Shown piece after piece: positions 37,601-52,700 of a stretch of 64,000 nt of DNA (its first letter is position 1; each line of letters begins with the position of its first letter). Both the position numbers and the translations under genes were made by a program. Under the pieces are notes generated by a model. It was not told the origin of the DNA. It saw only the letters and a program-made list of their open reading frames with translations, and did not search any database. Origin of the DNA: Antedon mediterranea (lineage: Eukaryota > Animalia > Echinodermata); NCBI RefSeq assembly GCF_964355755.1, contig NC_092680.1, positions 2,542,001 through 2,606,000 on the forward strand. Reading direction: 5' to 3'.

Positions 37601-38461
37601 ACCACCACCTTTAAACCAACACCCCCCACCTCCCCCAATAACACCCATTTTTCCAATTCGAATAGTCTATGAATAAATTGTCTTGGCATTATTTATTAGT
37701 ACACTTTTGTGCGTACTAATAAAAATCGTTTCATTTAAATAGCACACCGTAATGTATTAATTTTTACATTATACTGTAGTAAGAAATAATGTATTTGAGA
37801 TAGAAAAGGAATAGTTCTAATTTATACCCACTTAACTCCTAACATGGCGATATGTATTATAATTGATATGGGTTTGAACAATTATCTACAATACTACTTC
37901 TTCTTTGTACTCATATAATTTCTTTCTATAAAATGTTAGTCCCTTGACTGTAATAATTTTGATACCCAAGAATTCATTCCATCTTCTCAATACAAGGGAT
38001 TTGTGTTAAGTAATAATTTGATAGGGTTAATGTACAGCTCTGTCTACACTATCAAACTTTATGTGACAAAAAAATGTGATGTGCCTATATATGGACATTT
38101 CATATTTGGTCATATCACTACCATATTTGGGCACATCACACTTTTTTTTGTCAAACTAGTTGGATAGTGTAGACAGAGCTTTAATGATCGAATATGCACT
38201 TGTTGAACAAGCTGAGTGTTAGTTGTTTAATAGGCAACAGGTATAAACTATATTCTGCTAGGCTTACATTAATTATTAGCCACATACTTTCAAACTGATT
38301 ATTTACATTATACCTTTCTATTCATTTCAATTATACATGTTATGCTTATTTACGGCATATCAAGTTAATAAATCAAACTTAAAACATCTTTAACAAGTGT
38401 TGCATGGGAGTAATTACCACCCCATCGCTTATTCGATCATTCACAGTGTAAAACCAACAGC

Positions 38462-41400
38462 CTACTGGGGATTTGGGTTCCAAAAGTGATGCCCAGGTGG
38501 CTGCTGGGAAGGCGAATGGGCCATCTGAGGTAGCTGTTGGTTATATGAGGCGGGAGGAGGTTGAGAATATGTAGGGTTGGTACGAGTGTATACTACCTGA
38601 TGGTGTACAACACCACCATAGGCAGATGTAGAGCCTGGGGGATGGTGCATTGGTTGAGAAGATGGGGGATAAAGGGGTTGGGAAGCGTTGGGATAGGGAA
38701 TCTTCCCTTGTATGTGATTATACATTCCCATATTATGCTGCATCCGATTCCCATCATCGTCTTCATCCGAATCCCCAGCATAGTCCACCAATCGCATTCT
38801 TTTGCTTACCCCACTGGGGGTATCTTCTGGAAGGCACACCCTAGATTTACCTGTTTTTTATTTTCCAAATATTAATTTTCAGTCCCAATTGATTTATTCC
38901 AATAAACCGGAAATATTAATTAATTAAATTTGCGTACAATTTTGAAAATTTTTTTTCAATTTTTTCATAATTTAAAGAGAAAAAAATTTGAAGAGAAAAT
39001 GAATAGTTAGATTCGCCAATTTTGACGTGAAATAGTAAACGGCGATGACACGTTGAACACATCCAGTTTGAACAATGGAGAAGACAGCAACATGCAAGAG
39101 AAAAGAGAAACAACAACAGCAATGTTAGTTAGCAATCTGAGTACAAGAAAAACAATGTTGTAATAATAAGGACCAGATATAATAATTCTTATAATTATGA
39201 AAATGGAATACAATGCCTATGTATGCATTGTAATACATTTTTTATTTTTTTCTAAGTTCTGAAAATGTCATCAAATGCAATGCCTATGTATGCATTGAAA
39301 TACATTAATTTTTTGTTAATGTTCTAAAAATGTCATCAAAATCGAAGGCAACATATTGTATTGAAAATTTAAAATGTTCTTTAGTTATTTGCAACATTGT
39401 TTTTAAACCTAAAAATGCAATATACTTGCATTTTTTTTCTGTGGACAAAAGTAATGGTTAATATTGGATTGGTCCAAAATGAACATTGATAATCCTAAAG
39501 TTTCGGAGAGAGAATTGGAGAAAAAACTGCCTGTTAGTTACCCCTAGCAACTAAATCTTTAATTATAACTTAGTCAAGATGTTTTCAAATGTTAAGTGCT
39601 AATTATGGAATGTCATTTCTATCCCTATACACTATTGGACACATGCACATATCAAACTGTCTATTTACAATTTTTTTTGGTAATTTTGTGAGGACTCGAG
39701 GCTAAATAGACAAACATCATTATGAATTAAATAAATACAATAATGACAATGTCAGTAATAGTAATAACATAATAATCTAAATTTTAGTGCTAGCTAATTA
39801 ACTGGGAGAAAAAAAAAATAATAAAAAAATATCTATCTAATGATTAAAATATCTACAATTGTATTAATGAATTAGACTATATAACATTTATAAATAAACT
39901 ATTTCACTAGTAGTACTAAAAGTAATTAATATCAATTCTGCTTGATATACAATACTATTGGTAAAATGGAATAAACTTGCAATGGTTTAAAATACACAAT
40001 ACAATGTTAAAACAAGACACAAATATGTGATGAAAATTCTACTTCATAGCAAATTTGCTCTCCTTGCTAATAAAAGGATTTCAGACAATATTAAGTGCCA
40101 TGCTTTGACCTTTGACATGTGTAGGTTAAACCAAACAGAGGCTTATTAATTCCTAGTTAAGAGATATGGGATACAAAATCGGTATGTAATTAGTGCTGGA
40201 GATGCAGTCTCCCCTACCGAGGGGATAAGATTGATGTCCTTTAAGAGAATAGTAATGTAAAATAATAACATCAATAAGTGTTTCCAGAATTTATTTATCG
40301 ACGAACCCCTGTAGAGAACGGAGGAGAAAAATGTGCCTAGTGGCGACAAACCTGAAGCTGGGAGTTGTGGTGGCGGCATCAGATCACGGTCATGTGCTAC
40401 ATTAAACGCTAGTCCCACTGGCACTGGTGGCGGCGGCATTAACCTGCAACAAAGCATATGTAACATTCCTAGGGTGTTGGGAACACAAAACACCTACAAT
40501 GTGCAATCGAGTATAAATGAATTTATCATAACTATTGGTATTAAACTTTAACAAAATAATATCGGCTGAATATCTTATTTCCAAGATTTAACAAAAATAG
40601 AAATTCAGTTTTTTAGAAGGCACAGTGTATGAATGGAATGGAATGGGTATATTACAATTAGATATAAAAGGCATTGAAAATTGCCAAAATACTAGTATAA
40701 TTAGTACAAATTAGTAAACATTTGTAATTTTGTAACTTATGGGATTAAACACATATTTGATAAAATGAATGAATTAATGTTTATTTTAATGTGTTGATAT
40801 TAAATATTAATACTCTCTTAAAAAAGCAGTAATAGAGAATTTAAAATGAACATGCAAGGAAAATCCCAGATTAATTAGCCTCCTTGGAGGTGCAATTTAC
40901 CTAGCATCATCTGGATTTTGAAGTCTAGGCGAATGTGCCATAACACCATGAGATGGTCCGTGACTGGTTTGAACCGGTTGTCCAGGTGGTGGATGGGACA
41001 GATTTCTTGGTGGAGAGCTGGCACCTAGATTTGTCAAGTGGGGAGGGCCATGCTATGTAGAGTAAAGAAATGCATGTTAAGACATAGAAATTTGTAAAAA
41101 GAAAACCTGGTTAGAATCTTATTTAGCATGCTTGATAATCCTGGGCATCAAGCATAATACCATGCTAAACCGGGTATAAGCCCACCCTGGGATAAAAGCA
41201 TTCATGTTATACCTAATTATCCATGTAAAAATAGATTGACCAACTATGTGTTGGCTTTCTAGTACACGTACCATACTTGGGCAAATGTTCAAATGAGGGA
41301 GATGGGGAAGGAAGGGTTGGGCTGGGCTTATACCCGAGTCAGTTCAGTATTTAATATCCATCTTCTGCAAAAATTTCTTATTGGTGAAAAACAAGATTTT

Positions 41401-44400
41401 AAATTAAATTCTAGCTCTTCATTAGCACAATCGTCACAGAATTCTACCTTTACATGGATAAAAACAAAACAATCATAATCAAACTCATCTGCCCAAATGC
41501 TTTTAAAAGTTGAAAAGATCCTAAGATATCGGCAAGCAAAAAACATGAAAATAAGAGAATAAAAGGGAAGGAATATGGACATATTAAAGAGAAAAATATG
41601 AATTTGAAATTCATTATTCAATCTTTATTTGATCATTCCTGATGATGGATTAGATCTCTATTCCGCTTAAAAAGAAATTAAACTGTATAGGATAAAAAAC
41701 AAATTTTAGTTTTCTGTTGCACAGAAATGCGTTAAAGATAGAAAATAAAAAGTTTATTATTATTTGTCGAACCTGGTAGCCTAAGAGACCGTCTTCTAGT
41801 TTTTCCGGATCCTCTTTAAAGTGTCGTTTCTGAGGTTGTTGACCCTGTTGATGTTGTACTTGTTGATGCGGCATCTGTGGCTGCATCGTTTGCAACTCTT
41901 TTGGTGGTAGGTAAACGTTGAGTTGTTGAGGCATGTGCGTCACGACAGGTTGTGGCGGGGGCTGTTGTAGAAAGCGAGGAGATGGTCCTTGGTTTAGTGA
42001 ATGTTGGATAACGGGATGGACTGCACCACCAGGTGTGTTTACTACCGATACCGGAATCTATATGAAAAAAAAACAATGTACAAATTACTAGAATGGCCCT
42101 AATAGTAAACAAGAAATAGACCACAATCAACACACCAATATTACCATATATATTGTACCAATCCAAGTCAACACAATATAATGTGATATTCTTACCAAAC
42201 TCTAAGCTCTGTCTACACTATCCACATATCACTACCATATTTAGGCATATCACTACCATATTTGGGTACATCACACTAGTTTGATAGTGCAGACAGAGTT
42301 TAAAGATAATACTTATTTTAATTTAATTGTTATTGTTACATGTTTATGTCTCATCAAGATGTATTTTTGTGAGGACACCCTCGTAAAATATTGTTGAAAT
42401 AAAATAAATAAATAAAATAATCTCAGTAGGTGCGACCGAACATTGGCACCTACAGTGCATACAAATTGTACACTTACATGTGTGGTGACTATCTGCTGAG
42501 TCTGAGGGACTTGTTGTTGCATGGGTACCTGTGTTCCTGGTACCTGACCTGGACGTTGCATATGCTGTATTTGAACAACTTGCTGTCCTATGCCTGGCTG
42601 TATAGCTTGCGTTAGCTGAGGCCGTTGTACCAAGACTGATGATAGAGTGAGGGGCTGTTGAGTTAACTGAGGTGACTGCTGCCCTAGTGATGGTGCAGTG
42701 ATCACTATGAGAAAAAACAAATGTAAATTACTAAAGCTTTGTCTACACTACCAAATATAATAGTGATATGCCCAAATATGGCAGTGATATGTCCAAATAT
42801 GGTAGTGATATGTCCAAATATGGCAGTGATATGTCCAAATATGGTAGTGATATGTTCAAATATGCCAGTGATATGTCCAAATATGGTAGTGATATGACAT
42901 TCATATATGGACACATTTTTGTTGTCACATAAAGTTTGATAGTGTAGACAGAGCATAAGGAAGAATGTGTTTGTATATGCGGTAAAGACTGACTCAACAG
43001 AATTACAATTTATCTAATGTTGGCAGAGCAGTAGACCCAAAATCTGACTTAAGATATGGAACTGTTCGCAATGTCATTAATTTTGGAGGATTGTATCGGC
43101 GATAGATTTATGTCTGGAAAATCTAGGCCTTCTTTTTCCTCCATATAAATATTCAATAAAAAATTCCTTTGTACATACCCGTTTGATTAGATAAACCTGC
43201 AGAGGGGAGGTGGACTGATGCTGTGCTAACCTGTAACCGTATCTGCCTAGGGCCTTGAGGGATCTGGGGAACAAGTTGTTGTAATTGTGTCTGTTGGTTG
43301 GCCATTGCCGCTGTGAGTGAAGCATGTTGCAGCTGTACTTGTTGCTGGCCTACAGATGACATCTGAATTTGCTGTGGTTGAATTGCTTGCACATTTTGTA
43401 CTGCAGGCATTTGTACAGTTTGTAAATTTACTACACCTATAACAACAGACAGTTATTGGGTAAACAAGTGTAATGTCCCCAAATATGGTAGTGCTATACC
43501 CAAATATGACATCATCATGTCCATATATGGGCACATCACATAGAGTAGACAGCTTAAGAATGCTAACTACAGTAGAAGTTAATACAACAGCCAAGCGTTG
43601 ATACTCAACAAGTTTTATTGGTATTACATGATGTACTGTAACAATTACTTTTAAAAAATGTATCTGTTGGCAGAGCAGTAGACCCAAAATCTGACTTAAG
43701 ATATGGAACTGTTCGCAATGTCATTAATTTTGGAGGATTGTATCGGCGATAGATCTATGTCTGGAAAATCCAAGCCTTCTTTTTCCTCAACAATATTACT
43801 ATTATTATTATTAAACTTTTATTTTATAGAAAAAAAATGCTTAAAATCCAAGCAATTCCCAAATCTGTAACAGTGAACTTACCTGATGGACCAACAACAG
43901 GTTGTACTCTAACTGAAGGTGATATTATCTGACTTTGCAATCGACTGTATTCACAATGAACCTTTACATAAAAGAGAAAAAAAAATATACCAGGTTGCAA
44001 TCAGAGATTTGAATGGTGCTTCGTTAAGCTATGTTAGACAGGCAAATTTGCCCTATGTATCCAGTTTCGGAGAGTAATTATATTTTATAAATTTATAAAT
44101 AATTTTATATATTTATAAATAATTTATTATTGTTTATTACCGTTTGAATAAGATTGTCACATAGTTTCTTAGCAGCTTCAATAGATTCTAGTTTTGGATG
44201 ACTGAGATGTACGTGCATAGGTTCAAACGCCTCTCGTCCTGATATTGGATCAGGGGTGCCTGAACCTTTCCCTCGCAACGTTACATTCACTCCAGTTTCT
44301 GTTCGTATGTGCATGAGAAACGAGCCCTAGCAAAAACAAAACATTAACGTATATTATAACATGACTTCAAGAATGTAGCCAATCAGACGTGCTGAAATGA

Positions 44401-47400
44401 GTCACATGTTCAAATTTGGAACAGAGGCTAAGGTTGAGATAGGTACATTTAAATAGGGATGTTCAGACGAGTTGGAGGTAAGCCCTGAAATAGCAGTTTG
44501 TTTGTTGTAAGCCTTGGGTAGTGTTTTTGTATTAAGGCCATCTACATAATTGCTTATAATCACTTGTTAAAAAATGTATAAATTTTTACTTACTCCTGGT
44601 CCGAGTATTTTGTCTTTTACACTGTATGAAGGATGTGCGTGGTCCAGCCCAATAAATATCTTTTCTTGATTCATGTGCTGTGAACAAATACAAAAGATAC
44701 TAACATTGTGTTGTAGTAGTACAATACTTCCTGAATTTCCTGATGTTTTAAGCCCTGTCTACACTATCCATATATGGACATGATGATGCCACATCAAACT
44801 AGTTTGATAGTGTAGACAGAGCTTTAGATGTTATACTACAACCATCTTCTGGAGTAATGCTAGGCGAGTAAAGTTGAAGCAAATATAAAGAGAGCCAAGC
44901 CTAAGGTGTGGTTATCTCAAGACAATTAGTCTTAGCCAAAAACAATTGTGTTGCTTATAGGTGTCAAAGTAAATGCTGGCCTTTGCTCCAGTGGGCGTGT
45001 GTAAAATGACTAAACGAAGTTAGAATACACATAGTGCAGGGCATGATGACATTCCAATGGAATCATCATAATTTTTGGAATCACATGATAGTGTAGCACA
45101 AACCTTACTTTACAAGGGTCTTTTTATGACAATTTTATTCAAACTGTTGGTAGACTTAAAAAGTATACATGCCAAATTTTTTTTCTTCAAAAATGATACG
45201 TACGTTTAATAACGAAAATTGTTTTAACACTATGGTCAACCTCTTTTCAGGGGACACTTTGGTCTTATTTGAAGTTCTACTCAATTACAAATAAGATAAG
45301 ATAATTTATTTCGTCCACAAAACAAGTGGAAATAATGGTGCTTGTCTCACGCAAAGTTAAAACGGAAAAACAAATATCAAAACAATTAAAGTTATTAACA
45401 TCAATATCTACAAAATAAAATATAATTGTCAGTCTTTACTTACCACTGACTGAGATGGTGCTCTTGGAGGTGAAATTGTCATTAAAGGTGGAGGAACCTG
45501 CCTGTTACCCTGATTGACACTACCTGGGCCTGATAGGCCAGGCCTGACAGGTGCAGGCTCAAATCTACTTGGCCCTAGTCTACTACGCCCTCTTCCCTTT
45601 GGTTGCATGTTGTCTGCAATTATCTCTCTAATACTCATTACAGCTCCTATAATATATCAAACAATTTTGTTAAGCTTTATCTACAGTATCAAACTTTATG
45701 TGATGACTGATGTCATATCACTACCATATTTGGGCACATCACACTTTCACATTGTATGTGTGTTAATTATTAAGTATTTGTTTACATTGTAGTATCATTT
45801 GTTTACCACTGTAAATAAATGTTACATCACAATACAGGGTTTTTGTCAGGTTGCATAGAGTGGCAACCAAGTCCCATCTCCCTCCCTCACAAGAACCCTG
45901 ACATTACAATAATAATAGTTCATTCATATATAGCGCATATAAGCAAGCTCCCAATGCGCTGCACATTATTACCCCAGTCATTTTTTGGATACTACACATA
46001 TGGAAACATACACCCATAATAACAATACAATTTATAGCTATTAAAAATGTAGTCTAGAGTTATTGTTGACTAACCATGGATCACACTAATCTAACTCAAT
46101 TCTGGTTTAACTTATAACTCTAATAACGCAAACAATACATACTATCCACCGCCTCCTTGTCTTGTCCTTGTACGCATAGGTATAAAGGTCGCTCTCTATG
46201 AAAATATAAGAAAACATTTAAAAAATACATTCTTTAAATTTGTATCCCCTTTTCAAACTCATCTAAAGCTTTGTCTACACACAGAAAAATGTGATGTGCC
46301 CATATATGGACATGTCATATCACTACCATATTTAAGCATATCACTACCATATTTAGGCATATTACTACCATATTTGGGCACATCACACCTTTTTTGTCAA
46401 ATTAGTTTGATAGTATATAGCTTTAGAGTATTGGTGTAAATATTATTATTATTAAATGTCAAATAAAGTTTGATAGTGTAGACAGAGCTTAAGTTATTCA
46501 CAATAAAAATAATACAAATAAGGAAGCAATTTAGGTAATTAACGTACCCCATGTTGTTCTTGGCCCTGTCTGCATATGACATGTATCTCCCTCTGGTTGA
46601 TACAGCAACACCAGTCATTTTACTAATCTGAAAAAAAAAAAAGGTTTTCATAATTTTCTATGCTTTAACCATAACATTGTTATACTCAATTTAAAATGTA
46701 ATATTGCAAAAATCTAGTTTAAAAACCCAAATATGTCAACTGAACATATGAAATAAGTTCATCTGCTAACACTTTAATATGATACATGTATAGGGCTTGG
46801 TTTACAAGCCCAATCAACAATATGTAGTAAACACATGCATGGCCTAAGAAATTCTGTTTTATTTGTGGACTAAAAGTCGTAGTTAGTCATGCCTCGGGTC
46901 ACATTCTATGGTCACCGTACAGGTAGGCTACTACATCAGTACTTCTATGAATGGATGACTAGTCGGTGACAATAACGCTAGTTGGTCATACCCAGTACCG
47001 TTTTGATTTTACGATCATTCGGGAAACCACCTCACGACGTTTTATTTGTGGACTAGCAATAAATTAGTAGAATAAGCATTAAAGCTCTGTCTACACTATC
47101 AAACTTTATGTGAAAAAAATGTGAGGTGCCCAAATATGGAAGTGATATGCACAAATATGTTAATGCTATGACATCATCATATATGGGCACATCACATATC
47201 ACATAAAGTTTGATAGTGTGGACAGAGCTTAACAAAAGCATTTACTTACATCATCTTGAGTAGAGCCTCTAGTTAGCAGATTGCGACAGTGGATTGGTAC
47301 ATCATTTATCTCAACCTCTGCAACAATCTGATCTTCTTTCTTTTGTGGATTTGCACTTGTCTAGAACAAATGTTAATTTTATGGCACATTTAAAAACAAA

Positions 47401-48795
47401 AGTAGATGATACATAATTGCACTGGGTGGAGGTGACCAGGTAAAACAAAAGTAGACGATGCATAATTGCACTGGGTGGAGGTGACCAGGTAAAACAAAAG
47501 TAGATGATACATAATTGCACTGGGTGGAGGTGACCAGGTAAAACAAAAGTAGATGATACATAATTGCACTGGGTGGAGGTGACCAGGTAAAACAAAAGTA
47601 GATGATACATAATTGCACTGGGTGGAGGTGACCAGGTAAATTCTTTCAACCAGTCTATAGCCCTGTCTACACTATCAAAATAGTTTAAAAAAACAAGCAC
47701 GAATGCGATACTCGGGGTACAGCAAAAGAAGCTGTAATGACGTCATAAGACCGGATGTAACGTCACATACACATCAATAACCTTGCTACCAAATACGGCT
47801 ATACGGTACCATCTTCCAGACGTCATATGGCTGCATCCGGTTTGAAATTAAAAAATCCAGCTCTATAGATTTGAGGACATGTCTCTGTAGTATATTCATG
47901 CCAAATCCCAGCTCAATACTACAACGAATAAGTGAGGAGTATACTTTATAAGTCGCACTTTTTACTCAATAGTGTCCAGATGGAGGAGGAGAAAATGAGT
48001 AAGTCTTAGACTCGTGTACCTCGAGTAAAAAAGTGTGATGTTATGGGGTAGTGATATGACATCATCATGTCTATATATGGGCACATCACATTTTTTTTCC
48101 AATTAAAGTTTGATAGTGTAGATAGAGCTTTATATGAACTGATGAATCAACATTACCTTAGTTTTTGTATTGGCTGACACTGGTAATTTTAGTTTTCCTT
48201 TTGATATAAGCATAGCATTGATTTTAGCAGCAGCGGCTGAAGCTGCTTCTAAGCTACTCCCCGATTGGTTGTCCTGTTGATGCTGCATTAACATGTGACT
48301 TGCGTTGGAAGATGGAGTGTCCCACTTGCTCCTACGACGATGTTGGCTAAAATAATAAAAAAAATACAATCATTTATTAAATTGATGAAAAGTGTGATAT
48401 ATCTAGTTAGAAGACAAAACATTTACTATGCCTACAAATGTTATTATCATTATGTTAAATGAGGCAAAAGGTATTGTCCATTTTGACATGATCTGGTGAG
48501 TGAGGTGATTTCTTAGTTACTTCTGTCCACTTCCACTACCATATCATATGCAATTCAAGGGTGTGTAGAAAGCGACGACCTCGAATTGGACGACCCCAAC
48601 GACCTCGAATTGGACCACCCATAACACGAAACCGACGACCCCTATAGGGATGTTATATCACACATAGGCCTAGGCTATAGGGGTAGTCGGTTTCGTGTTA
48701 TGGGTCGTCCAATTCTAGGTCGCCCGGGTCGTCGCTTTCTACACACCCTGCAATTCAAGCATGTCAAATTTCAATCAAACTTACTCAGTGGCCAT
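38462..48795 (-). CDS. KHDC4: KH domain-containing 4, pre-mRNA splicing factor (BLOM7/KIAA0907), about 15 coding exons
   Basis: MATD|QHRRRSKWD (48795-48785, 48346-48157), [26 protein letters not shown] (47360-47250), [35 protein letters not shown]...[27 protein letters not shown]...[19 protein letters not shown]|[33 protein letters not shown] (38462). All match recalled KHDC4 motifs. Confidence 0.93.
43015..43143 (-). ncRNA. Box H/ACA scaRNA, SCARNA4 (ACA26)-like guide for U2 Psi41/Psi39, copy 1
   Basis: Minus strand TGGAGGA-AAAAGAA-GGC...CGCC-GATAC-AA-TCCTCCA, H box AAATTA, second hairpin with GAACA / TACTGC pocket, ACA 3 nt from the end. Guides are complementary to U2 GUAUC-[U41]G-UUCUU and GUAGUA-[U39]C-UGUUC. 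Intronic and sense to KHDC4. Confidence 0.82.
43662..43790 (-). ncRNA. Box H/ACA scaRNA, SCARNA4-like, copy 2
   Basis: Near-identical to copy 1 (about 4 differences, all in the 5' hairpin stems); same H box, ACA box and guide pockets; lies in the adjacent KHDC4 intron. Confidence 0.82.
46871..47044. mobile_element. Degenerate MULE-type MITE
   Basis: 9-bp direct flanks TTTGTGGAC (46862-46870 and 47045-47053); ends TAAAAGTCGT...ACGACGTTTTA. Confidence 0.55.
47393..47637 (+). repeat. 49-bp minisatellite, 5 copies
   Basis: Unit AAAACAAAAGTAGATGATACATAATTGCACTGGGTGGAGGTGACCAGGT, nearly identical copies with no spacers. Confidence 0.95.
47690..48030 (-). mobile_element. Helentron-associated (HINE/DINE-1-like) element nested in a MITE-A copy
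   Basis: Subterminal inverted repeats TACTCGGGGTACA / TGTACCTCGAGTA; minus-strand end ...CTTGTTT; inserted into the A-run of MITE-A 47659-48129. Confidence 0.55.
48559..48748. mobile_element. Mutator-like (MULE) foldback MITE, 190 bp
   Basis: Perfect 10-bp TSD TGCAATTCAA (48549-48558 and 48749-48758); TIR GGGTGTGTAGAAAGCGACGACC...GGTCGTCGCTTTCTACACACCC with long inner arms. Confidence 0.85.
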
Positions 48796-49149
48796 TGTGT
48801 ATCCGCTACTTCACACTACCTGTGTTTAAATTGATTTTCTGTAACATAAAACATTTAAAAAAAATTAATTTATATTTAATTTTAAAATCCACAAATCCGG
48901 CTAGGCCTTAACTATAATATGTCAAACCTGAGAATCTTTTTAATAATCATGGGTTTTCATAAACGTTAGGCGACCTCTCTGAAACGATCCCGATCCCCAA
49001 ACCGCAATGTCTTTGGGCCGAAACGACCTGCTATCAGCCTAGGTCTAGCCTCTAGGCTAGGCCAACCTAACTTAGATAGGCCTAGGCCTATTCAATTTGG
49101 GCAAAAACAGAGAAAATACGTACAAAGCAAAAAATACAATTACCCTTAT

Positions 49150-49779
49150 AAGTTCTCTGTAGCAAAAAGAATATACAGTACTTTGTATGCATTTGGATAC
49201 TAGTATACTAGTTTAATACAGTGGTTTTTGGGTTCAAAATGAGTTTATTTATAGGCCTACTAGCAGGCCTAGAATCTTCTTTTCTTATGTGTCGCGAGCT
49301 GAAAAAAAAGCAAAATGGAAGCGACCCTTGTGTTGACAGAAAAACAGCATTGTTTAAAACGTAGACATAACTTTGCACTTAATTTGATTTCATATATAGT
49401 AGAAGAGTATACATTAATAAATATAAGTGTAACCTAGTATTTTATTGTCTATGATATATATGGATATTATGACATCAATGTCGAACATTAATTAAACGTT
49501 ATTCTGGCAATATTACCAGGTCCTTTAAATAATTTTCAGTCCTGGTGGCAGCAAACATCAAAATAATAAAAATGTGAAATGTGATGGTACACAATAGGAG
49601 ATGGTATATTTGATGGTACAGTACTATTATTATAAAGTACTGTAGGCCTACATACAGTAGTAAAGGCAGCAGCAAGAAGAAGCAACAGGATAATAGGCCT
49701 AGGGCCTAGATAAACTCAAAGGAAGATAGACATTGAAATAAAATCGATATTAGTAGGCTATGAAGCATAGACAAGACGT
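49150..49779. promoter_or_regulatory. Probable bidirectional promoter region of KHDC4 and WDR41
   Basis: Head-to-head genes; minus-strand donor at about 49152 for a non-coding KHDC4 exon; TCGCGA palindrome at about 49292; TAGGCCTA-rich flanks. Confidence 0.55.
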
Positions 49780-52700
49780 ATGGCTCTTTTTTGGAGATCA
49801 AGCCGTACCGAACAGGCAAAAAACAAGGTTGTGAAATGTGTCCCTATTTAGTAGCCTAGCTAGTTATCATATCTTATTTATTTTACTAGACTAGGCTTAC
49901 GGTAGTTTAGATTAGGCCTAAGCCTACAAACAAGTCAGTAGTATACTCTAGTTCAGTGTTAATATTTAGTATTAACTATTATATAACACCTAAATAAATT
50001 CCTGTCATTTAATTAGACGATTGAGGAGTGATGAAGAGACGATGGAGTGCAATAGTTCGCTCTATTTAATGATCGTGTAATAGTACTTTTTTCCATTTTT
50101 TTGTGCACGTAAAAAAAATCTGAACAACATTTCTGTGAAACTCATTTCCAATTTATAAGCTTATACAATTATAAAAAGGCATGATGTGGCCTATTGCTGA
50201 TACCATTATCCATACATTCTCTACTTCATCATGCTTGACAATGATGTTATTATTAATATTATTCATATTATTGTTATTTTTTTCAGAATACCGTACCTAC
50301 AGTAGAAGCCAATCAGCCATTGAATCCTTTTACAGAAATCCAAGTATTTACAGATCATACAGACATTGTGAGACAGATACTGAAAGTTGACGCCACAAGG
50401 TAAATTGCATTTTCTAATGTAAAGCTCTATCTACACTATCAAACTAGTTTGACAACAAATGCATAAATATGGTAGTGATATGACATCATCATGTCAATGG
50501 GCACATCATATTTTTTGTCACATAAAGTTTGATAGTCTAGACGGAGCTTAAACCTACATTTTTTTACAGTCGCTAAACTGAAAATTATATTTCAATTTTT
50601 GTTAATAGATGTGTATCATCTTCTGATGATTGTACAGTTATATTATGGGATGTTGAATTAGGAATTCTGTTCACATTCATCGGACATTCACGACCTGTGA
50701 CCTGTATGTTATACTATGTAAGTGAGAATACAGAGCTATTGGCAACAGGATCGTCTGATAAGACCATAAGAATCTGGAATCTACATACTGGAGAGTGTGT
50801 GCAAACAGTAACTGAACATGCTAGTAATATAAAAGTAAGTGAAACCTATTTTTATTAATATATAGTTCAATGACCTTTCAAAAAAATGATACATTTGATT
50901 TCTAAGTCCATTGTTGTTAAGTTAACACTATATAGATTCTGCGTTGTTGAAAAGGATGGGTCACATGACTATGGAATTTTTAATTATTGTCAATTTACCT
51001 AATACTAAAATTATAACAAGAACCTTGTACGGTATTAACATTTACAGGTAGCAGGTCTTAACTCTACTGCATACTGTGTAACAATCAAGGCTATGGGTGT
51101 GGAGAAAGTATTTAAGGTTTAGCTGTTATAAATAATATACTTCATACTCTATTTTCAGTGTTTAAGCTCTGTCTACACTACCAAACTTTATGTGACAAAC
51201 AAATGTGATGTGCCCATATATGGACATGATGATGTCATATCATTACCATATTTTGGCATATCACTACCATATTTGGGAACATCACACTTTTTTGTCAAAA
51301 TAGTTTGATAGGTGTACAGTATATAGAGCAATCAATGCTATGGGTGTGGAGAAAGTATTACGATTTAGCTGTTATAAATAAAATACTTCAAACTCTATTT
51401 TCAGTGCTTAGTTAGCATTACATCTTCTGAGTTGTTTTGCTCTGCTTCTGAGGAACTGTGTTTATGGGACATTGATTGGAAAATCGTACACAAAATCAAA
51501 CCAAATGAAGATGGTAATCAACCTGTCTATCTATCTTGATAATTATTGTTAATGTTTATATACATCCAATGAAAGGTTACAGTGGTTTAGTCGGTTGTTA
51601 GTTGTTTACTCACCAATCTCATGATCTTGGGTTTTTCGCTCTGACAATGATATAATGATACTAAATTATGATTTTTTTTTTATGATTAGTAAAAAGATAA
51701 ATATTTTTTGGCACATATGGCGTTTCATACGTATAATACTTGAGCTTGTATTTCAGACAAACATCGAAAAGCCTAAAAATAACTACATACTGTATATGAT
51801 TTGTATTTCGACAACCTGAAATGAAAATTAGCAATTTTACTCGATGGCATGATTTTTAACTAAATTACATTTCAGTGCAAATGAATCACCTACTGGTATT
51901 GTCAGATGAAAGACTTGTGGTGTCTGCAGCTACTAAGCTAACATTGTATAAAATAATATTGATTGGCGATGTTTACCGATTACAAATATTGAAGAACTGC
52001 TTGCCCCATCACCGAGAAAACATCAGATGTCTTGTCTCTATCTCAGGTAACCATTCTTGTACTTTTATAAAAACACCCCTGTACCATAATGGACTAGTCT
52101 GCAACCACACCCTCATTATACTTTACCACTTATAACAGTACTCCCTTGATCTATTCCACAGAGCTACTAATATTAGTCTTTATTTTTCTCTTCATAGATA
52201 GCGTTTTTTGCAGTGCTTCTCTAGATGGCGCTATTAGTGTATGGTCAACGCATGCATTAAATTGCACGCAAGAGTTAAATAAATTTGAAGATTACAAAGA
52301 ACATTACAATTTTCCACACAGTGTGCAATATCTTTTACCAATACAAGAGGTATACTTAAAAAATCTAATTATGTTTTGTTTCGCACACTAATTTGACACC
52401 TTATTTAATAGATAATGCATAGTAATAAAGCATTTATATCTGTGAAAATAATTGCGTGCACAGTCTACACCATTTTCACGGTCGGCCGCACCGATAGCCA
52501 CATATGAATTCCTATCTTTCTATTGCTCAGTTCATTATAATTGTGTTTTATTTGTTTTTTTAGCGTTACGTATTTGCTGCAATAGCCAATGGGTTTTCCC
52601 TGTACGATGTCTTTACTGGCAAGTGTTTGGTCAACATGTCCAATGCACATTTTTCTTCTGTTACATCATTGGCAATGATTTATGGAGGGTAAGTAACTGC

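Follow-up and report, generated by a model that had tools for sequence, protein, structure and literature searches.

The question raised by this locus is which RNA is encoded by an element that lies in two consecutive introns of the KHDC4 gene of the crinoid Antedon mediterranea, and how long this kind of RNA has been associated with its host. We analysed a stretch of 64 kb of contig NC_092680.1 (the window, with positions counted from its first letter; Table 1). In our view, the element is very probably an intron-encoded H/ACA scaRNA for the branch-recognition region of U2, duplicated into the neighbouring intron. This reading is built on the sequence, the host, the intron positions, the boxes, the pairing potential and the conservation with compensatory changes in five homologues.

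Table 1. Position of the KHDC4 gene, of the two predicted RNAs and of their motifs in the window.
Feature	Position	Strand	Remarks
KHDC4 (KIAA0907/BLOM7)	40300..48795	-	13 coding exons, GT-AG introns, start of 14th; 3' end open
KHDC4 exon 8	44141..44326	-	most of second KH domain; Pfam PF22675, 80 bits; PDB 2YQR, E 9e-23
KHDC4 exon 9	43883..43961	-	upstream of copy B
KHDC4 exon 10	43179..43436	-	between the copies
KHDC4 exon 11	42478..42704	-	downstream of copy A
Copy A, predicted box H/ACA RNA, 129 nt	43015..43143	-	KHDC4 intron 10; ends predicted from Rfam alignment and ACA+3
Copy B, predicted box H/ACA RNA, 129 nt	43662..43790	-	KHDC4 intron 9
Box H (AAATTA)	copy A 43078..43083; copy B 43725-43730	-	
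Box ACA	copy A 43018..43020; copy B 43665-43667	-	
5' pocket, left arm AAGAA	copy A 43130..43134; copy B at +647	-	pairs U2 43-47
5' pocket, right arm GATAC	copy A 43093..43097	-	pairs U2 36-40; predicted target U41
3' pocket, left arm GAACAG	copy A 43062..43067	-	pairs U2 41-45 (U39) or 40-45 (U37)
3' pocket, right arm CTACTGC	copy A 43028..43034	-	TACTGC pairs U2 33-38 (U39); CTAC pairs 33-36 (U37)
CCAG, 5' terminal loop	copy A 43114..43117; copy B 43761-43764	-	degenerate CAB-box candidate
UAAG, start of 3' terminal loop	copy A 43048..43051; copy B 43695-43698	-	degenerate CAB-box candidate
MITE-like repeat	42200-42290, 42730-42960, 43460-43560, 44740-44825, 45670-45745, 46280-46500, 47080-47230, elsewhere		

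The host is KHDC4, as the first-pass annotation of this DNA had proposed. Its exons were chosen by hand along the open frame, from 48795 down to about 40300, and the resulting model equals the Antedon mediterranea protein at 675 of 687 residues. Exon 8 matches the Pfam family KH-I_KHDC4-BBP and, among solved structures, the KH domain of human KIAA0907, and it is 100% identical to the A. mediterranea protein and 95% identical to KHDC4 of Anneissia japonica. Exons 10-12 (41773-43436, minus strand) encode a long glutamine-rich stretch that is well kept between Antedon and Anneissia. KHDC4/Blom7 has been described as a splicing factor expressed in every tissue tested (PMC2781463). The human gene also hosts SNORA42 (PMC6466398); in the crinoid gene (window positions 38000-50000) there was no match to a SNORA42/SNORA80-like sequence.

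Several repeats are present in the introns of this gene. Most of them, introns 9 and 10 included, contain a short, very abundant MITE-like repeat whose ends are inverted and which has 21-nt tandem units inside. The window has 16 occurrences of its 18-nt end motif, and the summed contig depth over the repeat goes from thousands to millions. In intron 2, about five 50-nt units follow each other in tandem (47400-47640), and intron 1 contains an inverted-repeat element (48560-48745). A weak SNORD86 match in the repeat region of introns 1/2 was discarded as likely chance.

Both predicted RNAs are sense to KHDC4. As previously noted, they represent one element in two consecutive introns, offset by 647 nt on the minus strand and 98% identical over 124 nt, and the likeness between introns 9 and 10 is confined to the RNA borders, besides one unrelated repeat. 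A pattern of three arms had two matches in the window, against none in 100 shuffles. The hairpin-H(AAATTA)-hairpin-ACA layout was recovered in each copy, with both boxes at the places first described. Four positions distinguish the copies between the first base and the ACA box, and the boxes and guide arms are indeed untouched: one difference is a bulge position, two change A-U into G-U in the upper 5' stem, and one costs copy B a pair at the base of its 5' stem. A start about 90 nt after the donor, also claimed at first, holds for copy B (approximately 92 nt) but not for copy A, which begins around 35 nt past its donor at 43179; single contigs of runs X5 and X9 splice 43179 to 42704. In the sequence, a second donor lies about 87 nt ahead of copy A, yet the spliced contigs use 43179.

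Could the copies be a dispersed repeat, or a chance duplication without RNA function? A high-copy repeat does occur in the same introns. However, the element has just two matches in the 64-kb window, contigs over the RNAs continue into unique exons, and their summed depth is exon-like and orders of magnitude under that of the repeat, a rough hint rather than a copy number. Together with the compensatory changes and the U2-specific pockets described below, this leaves a repeat origin hardly credible.

The second copy would come from a local duplication into the adjacent intron, and it is likely redundant. In organism B, contigs carry the 5' part of both copies, each with its own exon; therefore the duplication predates the split from that species. 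It could be argued that copy A alone is functional and copy B is a decaying duplicate, which would suit the broken pair at the foot of its 5' stem, its two A-U to G-U changes, its lower Rfam scores and its fold, which is no more stable than shuffles (z -0.8), whereas that of copy A is (z -2.7). Against such a decay, the boxes and arms of copy B are all intact, and a contig of run X8, from organism B, that covers 43741-43983 carries seven substitutions and a 6-nt deletion in the intron flank; among the six substitutions listed of the seven, none falls in the copy B RNA and five are in the flank. Moreover, copy B lies in an intron shared with the homologue L030 (see below), so it may be the older copy. 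We regard decay of copy B as unlikely. A low-depth contig of run X5 covers part of copy B and its flank and is uninformative on processing.

The pockets were compared with positions 30-50 of vertebrate U2, as read from a primer in PMC2064619, a reference that may differ from crinoid U2; this U2 region is printed in PMC2196410 as well. A U2 gene was also sought in viral contigs, and none was found there. Both copies present bipartite pockets complementary to U2 at about 14 nt from the box. Against this vertebrate reference, the 5' pocket makes 5+5 pairs around U41 with 14 nt to box H, and the 3' pocket in the U39 register makes 5+6 pairs (one G-U) with 13 nt to ACA, so the two fits originally claimed, AAGAA/GATAC to U41 and GAACA/TACTGC to U39, were reproduced. 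In an alternative U37 register, the 3' pocket makes 6+4 pairs with three unpaired bases and 14 nt to ACA. By pairing, then, all the pockets of a triple guide (U41, U39 and the alternative U37 register) are present in the crinoid RNA. Its likely targets are U41, U39 and perhaps U37. This third target is uncertain because, in humans, SCARNA15 knockout abolishes Psi39 and leaves Psi37 unchanged (PMC8271217), and because wild-type Xenopus SCARNA15 was reported to give no U37-equivalent pseudouridine in yeast (PMC5733568). The U37 register is also weak, with just four pairs on one side.

No Rfam family reached its gathering level in the window. Below it, the full SCARNA4 model (RF00423) ranked first, with 44.2 bits for copy A and 32.5 for copy B (gathering 60), and the fly PsiU2-38.40.42 family (RF02667) matched over the full length with 41.2 and 27.9 bits, respectively (gathering 88). 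The Rfam check proposed with the first annotation thus gave the expected family at the top, at scores under its cut-off. When copy A was divided, the 5' half alone had SCARNA4 as its best match (29.1 bits), and the 3' half alone had SCARNA15 (RF00426; 23.8 bits, gathering 65), with SCARNA4 absent from the results. The name SCARNA4-like consequently describes the 5' half and the host, but not the 3' half. SCARNA4 and SCARNA15 belong to one Rfam clan, CL00019. The original assignment to the H/ACA guides of this clan, with the U2 branch-recognition region as target, is borne out; the crinoid RNA is likely a member of this known family. Matches to SNORA47 and snoR104 were set aside, as they rest on the 5' hairpin (43072-43145, minus strand). 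This hairpin resembles the consensus of both, and snoR104 has the same U2 U41 arm; a distant kinship is possible.

Compared with characterized guides, the RNA joins traits of two of them. With SCARNA4/ACA26 it shares the best full-length match, the U41 5' pocket, the length and the KHDC4/KIAA0907 host, the latter confirmed for the human RNA by the tables of PMC6023535 and PMC6466398. It differs in that human SCARNA4 is placed in intron 6 (bioRxiv 10.64898/2026.06.30.735655) and not in introns 9 and 10, and in that SCARNA4 appears as a single copy in the human and Xenopus tables (PMC6984369, bioRxiv 10.64898/2026.06.30.735655). When tested, human and Xenopus SCARNA4 modified only the U41 equivalent (Deryusheva and Gall 2018, PMC5733568). 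An A-G mismatch next to U39 makes their 3' pocket inactive, and a single G-to-U change is enough to reactivate it (PMC5733568); in the crinoid RNA, the base adjoining the U39 target is a pairing U. The earlier statement that SCARNA4 guides both Psi41 and Psi39 is accordingly right for Psi41 and wrong for Psi39, which is made by SCARNA15 (PMC5733568, PMC8271217). With SCARNA15/ACA45 of non-eutherian vertebrates, the crinoid RNA shares the U2 41/39/37 pocket set (PMC5733568), the arms GAACAG and CUACU, the spacing to ACA and an alignment of the 3' half that is gap-free from the pocket to ACA. However, human SCARNA15 is hosted by the non-coding SNHG21 and not by KHDC4 (PMC8271217), the crinoid 5' half scores higher on SCARNA4, and the SCARNA15 score is under its cut-off.

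Non-eutherian SCARNA15, fly pugU2-38/40/42 and worm C50C3.14 have been grouped as triple-type guides (PMC5733568). The Drosophila RNA (scaRNA:PsiU2-38.40.42), a tested triple guide, has the four arms of the crinoid RNA; it differs in its host, an intron of bur (PMC3884663), in having a canonical UGAG where the Rfam consensus forms the 5' loop, and in pairing that is better at position 37 and worse at 39. By description only, the crinoid RNA can also be likened to C. elegans C50C3.14, a tested triple guide that has been described as an orthologue of SCARNA15 (PMC5733568), and to yeast snR81, which makes the Psi41 equivalent (PMC5733568, PMC3884663). In chicken, an 'orphan' RNA, GGoACA5, was listed in intron 6 of KIAA0907, and GGgACA49, labelled ACA26, in another transcript (PMC2653536); these may be chicken SCARNA4 and SCARNA15, respectively.

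The search for the first three arms in other sequences gave 45 loci, 43 from metagenomes and two viral. Five of them (L003, L029, L030, L038 and L042) also have TCTAC and ACA at the right spacing, motifs that, like the longer TCTACT, lay outside the search pattern, and the scores of these five on SCARNA15, SCARNA4 or the fly family are 35-42 bits. The other 40 reach at most 18 bits on a model made from seven sequences, which those seven match by construction. Among the metagenome loci, 38 of 43 were rejected as chance, with low model scores and without TCTAC and ACA at that spacing. As a control, none of 123 viral or prokaryotic matches to the 3' pattern has the 5' arm and ACA together; the viral loci (two from the first-three-arm pattern and 120 from the other pattern scan) and the three prokaryotic ones were taken as chance matches only.

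In the alignment, all seven sequences have a hinge with box H (ANANNA) and an ACA that follows the second hairpin. Changes on both sides were observed in 15 of the 24 stem pairs, and 86% of the cells pair, against 38-46% when the partners are slid; the seven represent about four independent lineages, were chosen by their pocket motifs, and were tested on a structure from their own alignment. The covariation thus supports, rather than proves, the predicted guide-RNA structure. The 3' arms are kept in all homologues, and the 3' half of L030 gave no match to SCARNA15.

The locus L030 comes from another animal and has, on the strand of the RNA, two short exons that are probably those of KHDC4. The first corresponds to the last part of the second KH domain (Pfam E 0.27), with 9-14 of 20 residues identical to eight KHDC4 proteins, which are named or clustered entries. 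The second, of 70 nt, has the phases of crinoid exon 9 and the best of 102 candidate acceptors (13.1, next 2.8). The RNA starts 777 nt behind this exon-9 equivalent, that is, at the intron position of copy B. A repeat in the same intron may be of a stony-coral type. Other loci lie elsewhere: the RNA of L038 (1176-1305) is within an EAF7/MRGBP gene, the exons of which had no usable match in the protein atlas, and that of L042 (1201-1336) precedes what looks like a coding exon (about 1570-1712), for which Pfam and the protein atlas gave no match. Around L003 (1137-1266) and L029 (1207-1335) no exon was recognised. These two are closely related to L038, an EAF7/MRGBP intron in one case and different DNA in the others, which indicates that the guide was duplicated in that animal group too.

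The hairpin-hinge-hairpin-tail fold was found in the predicted RNA. The 3' hairpin has a weak lower stem, in which 5 of 8 pairs form when it is aligned to SCARNA15, and the lowest-energy predicted fold leaves the 3' pocket closed; both features speak against strong activity of this pocket. Could the RNA be a true SCARNA4 equivalent, with only the 5' pocket (U41) active and the 3' pocket a relic or structural partner? This would agree with the weak stem and closed pocket, with a best full-length Rfam match and a host that are both those of SCARNA4, and with the frequent inactivity of predicted guide pockets on testing (PMC5733568). Nevertheless, the 3' arms are conserved among the homologues, where TCTACT and ACA had no part in the search pattern, the crinoid RNA has the target-adjoining U that SCARNA4 lacks, and its 3' half scores on SCARNA15 only. 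We consider a single active pocket improbable.

As regards localization, the UGAG CAB box is literally missing, as first reported, but the terminal loops carry CCAG and UAAG, the AG of which does not vary in either loop among the seven aligned sequences. In the CAB box the third and fourth bases, A and G, are crucial and the first two less so (PMC2172171), and a canonical UGAG is present in the 5' loop of L003, L029 and L038. These observations make it plausible that CCAG and UAAG are degenerate CAB boxes.

According to the known pathway, dyskerin, NOP10, NHP2 and GAR1 would bind the RNA co-transcriptionally, the debranched intron would be trimmed to about 129 nt, and the AG motifs of the loops would direct the particle to Cajal bodies, and two or three U2 uridines would be converted into pseudouridine. 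U41 would be the target of the 5' pocket. Those of the 3' pocket would be U39 and, after a refolding that leaves three bases unpaired, U37, in the manner of SCARNA15 and fly pugU2-38/40/42. The H/ACA class, the U2 targets, the invertebrate triple guides and this mechanism are already known. The new point is evolutionary, namely the predicted SCARNA15-type pockets inside the host of SCARNA4. We found no description of an invertebrate member of the family hosted in KHDC4; snoRNA annotation supplements and subscription journals might hold one, and the main text of PMC13736004 does not mention these RNAs.

The host intron is not conserved, being intron 6 in humans and introns 9 and 10 in the crinoid. 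Intron 6 of crinoid KHDC4, which would correspond to the human one by the human exon borders, gave no match to the guide RNA. In this RNA class, extra copies are common, as are moves from one intron to another within a host (PMC6984369). Under constrained drift, hosts are kept for their broad expression (PMC3511168), and the expression of KHDC4/Blom7 in all tissues tested fits this view. The family also has other hosts, including bur in the fly, SNHG21 in humans, EAF7/MRGBP (L038) and another gene (L042). On these grounds, the link to KHDC4 looks old yet not obligatory. The earlier dating to early deuterostomes holds insofar as the crinoid and human genes make the link pre-vertebrate; with L030, it may be older than early deuterostomes. 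On the other hand, the suggested coupling of a splicing factor to U2 modification is not supported, given the relatives in bur, SNHG21 and EAF7/MRGBP, and a relation of host and guide beyond co-transcription is unsupported too.

The different introns, the other hosts and the published drift model (PMC3511168) might also be read as convergence, with independent landings of the RNA in KHDC4 of vertebrates and crinoids. However, this would place members of one clan in one gene in three lineages, among thousands of broadly expressed genes, and in two of the three behind the same exon; besides, moves between introns within a host are common (PMC6984369). Convergence thus seems to us quite improbable.

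As the crinoid RNA joins SCARNA15 pockets with the SCARNA4 host, it suggests a state preceding the vertebrate SCARNA4/SCARNA15 split, in an order of events taken from few lineages without a tree. We see about even chances that a single triple-guide RNA in KHDC4 was what served U2 Psi37/39/41 in ancestral animals and was later divided into SCARNA4 and SCARNA15. In that history, the triple guide would have been kept in KHDC4 since before the deuterostomes, perhaps before the bilaterians; SCARNA4 would have stayed there and lost its 3' pocket, and SCARNA15 would have left, losing its 5' pocket in placentals. The crinoid would retain the unsplit RNA, with a fresh duplication of the kind that may start such a split.

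These results indicate that Rfam thresholds miss this U2-guide family in invertebrates. They would add to what is known of how the guides for the U2 branch-recognition region evolved, and offer a testable origin for the vertebrate SCARNA4/SCARNA15 pair. They would also represent a case of an snRNA guide associated with one host gene over a very long time, a persistence that constrained drift does not need.
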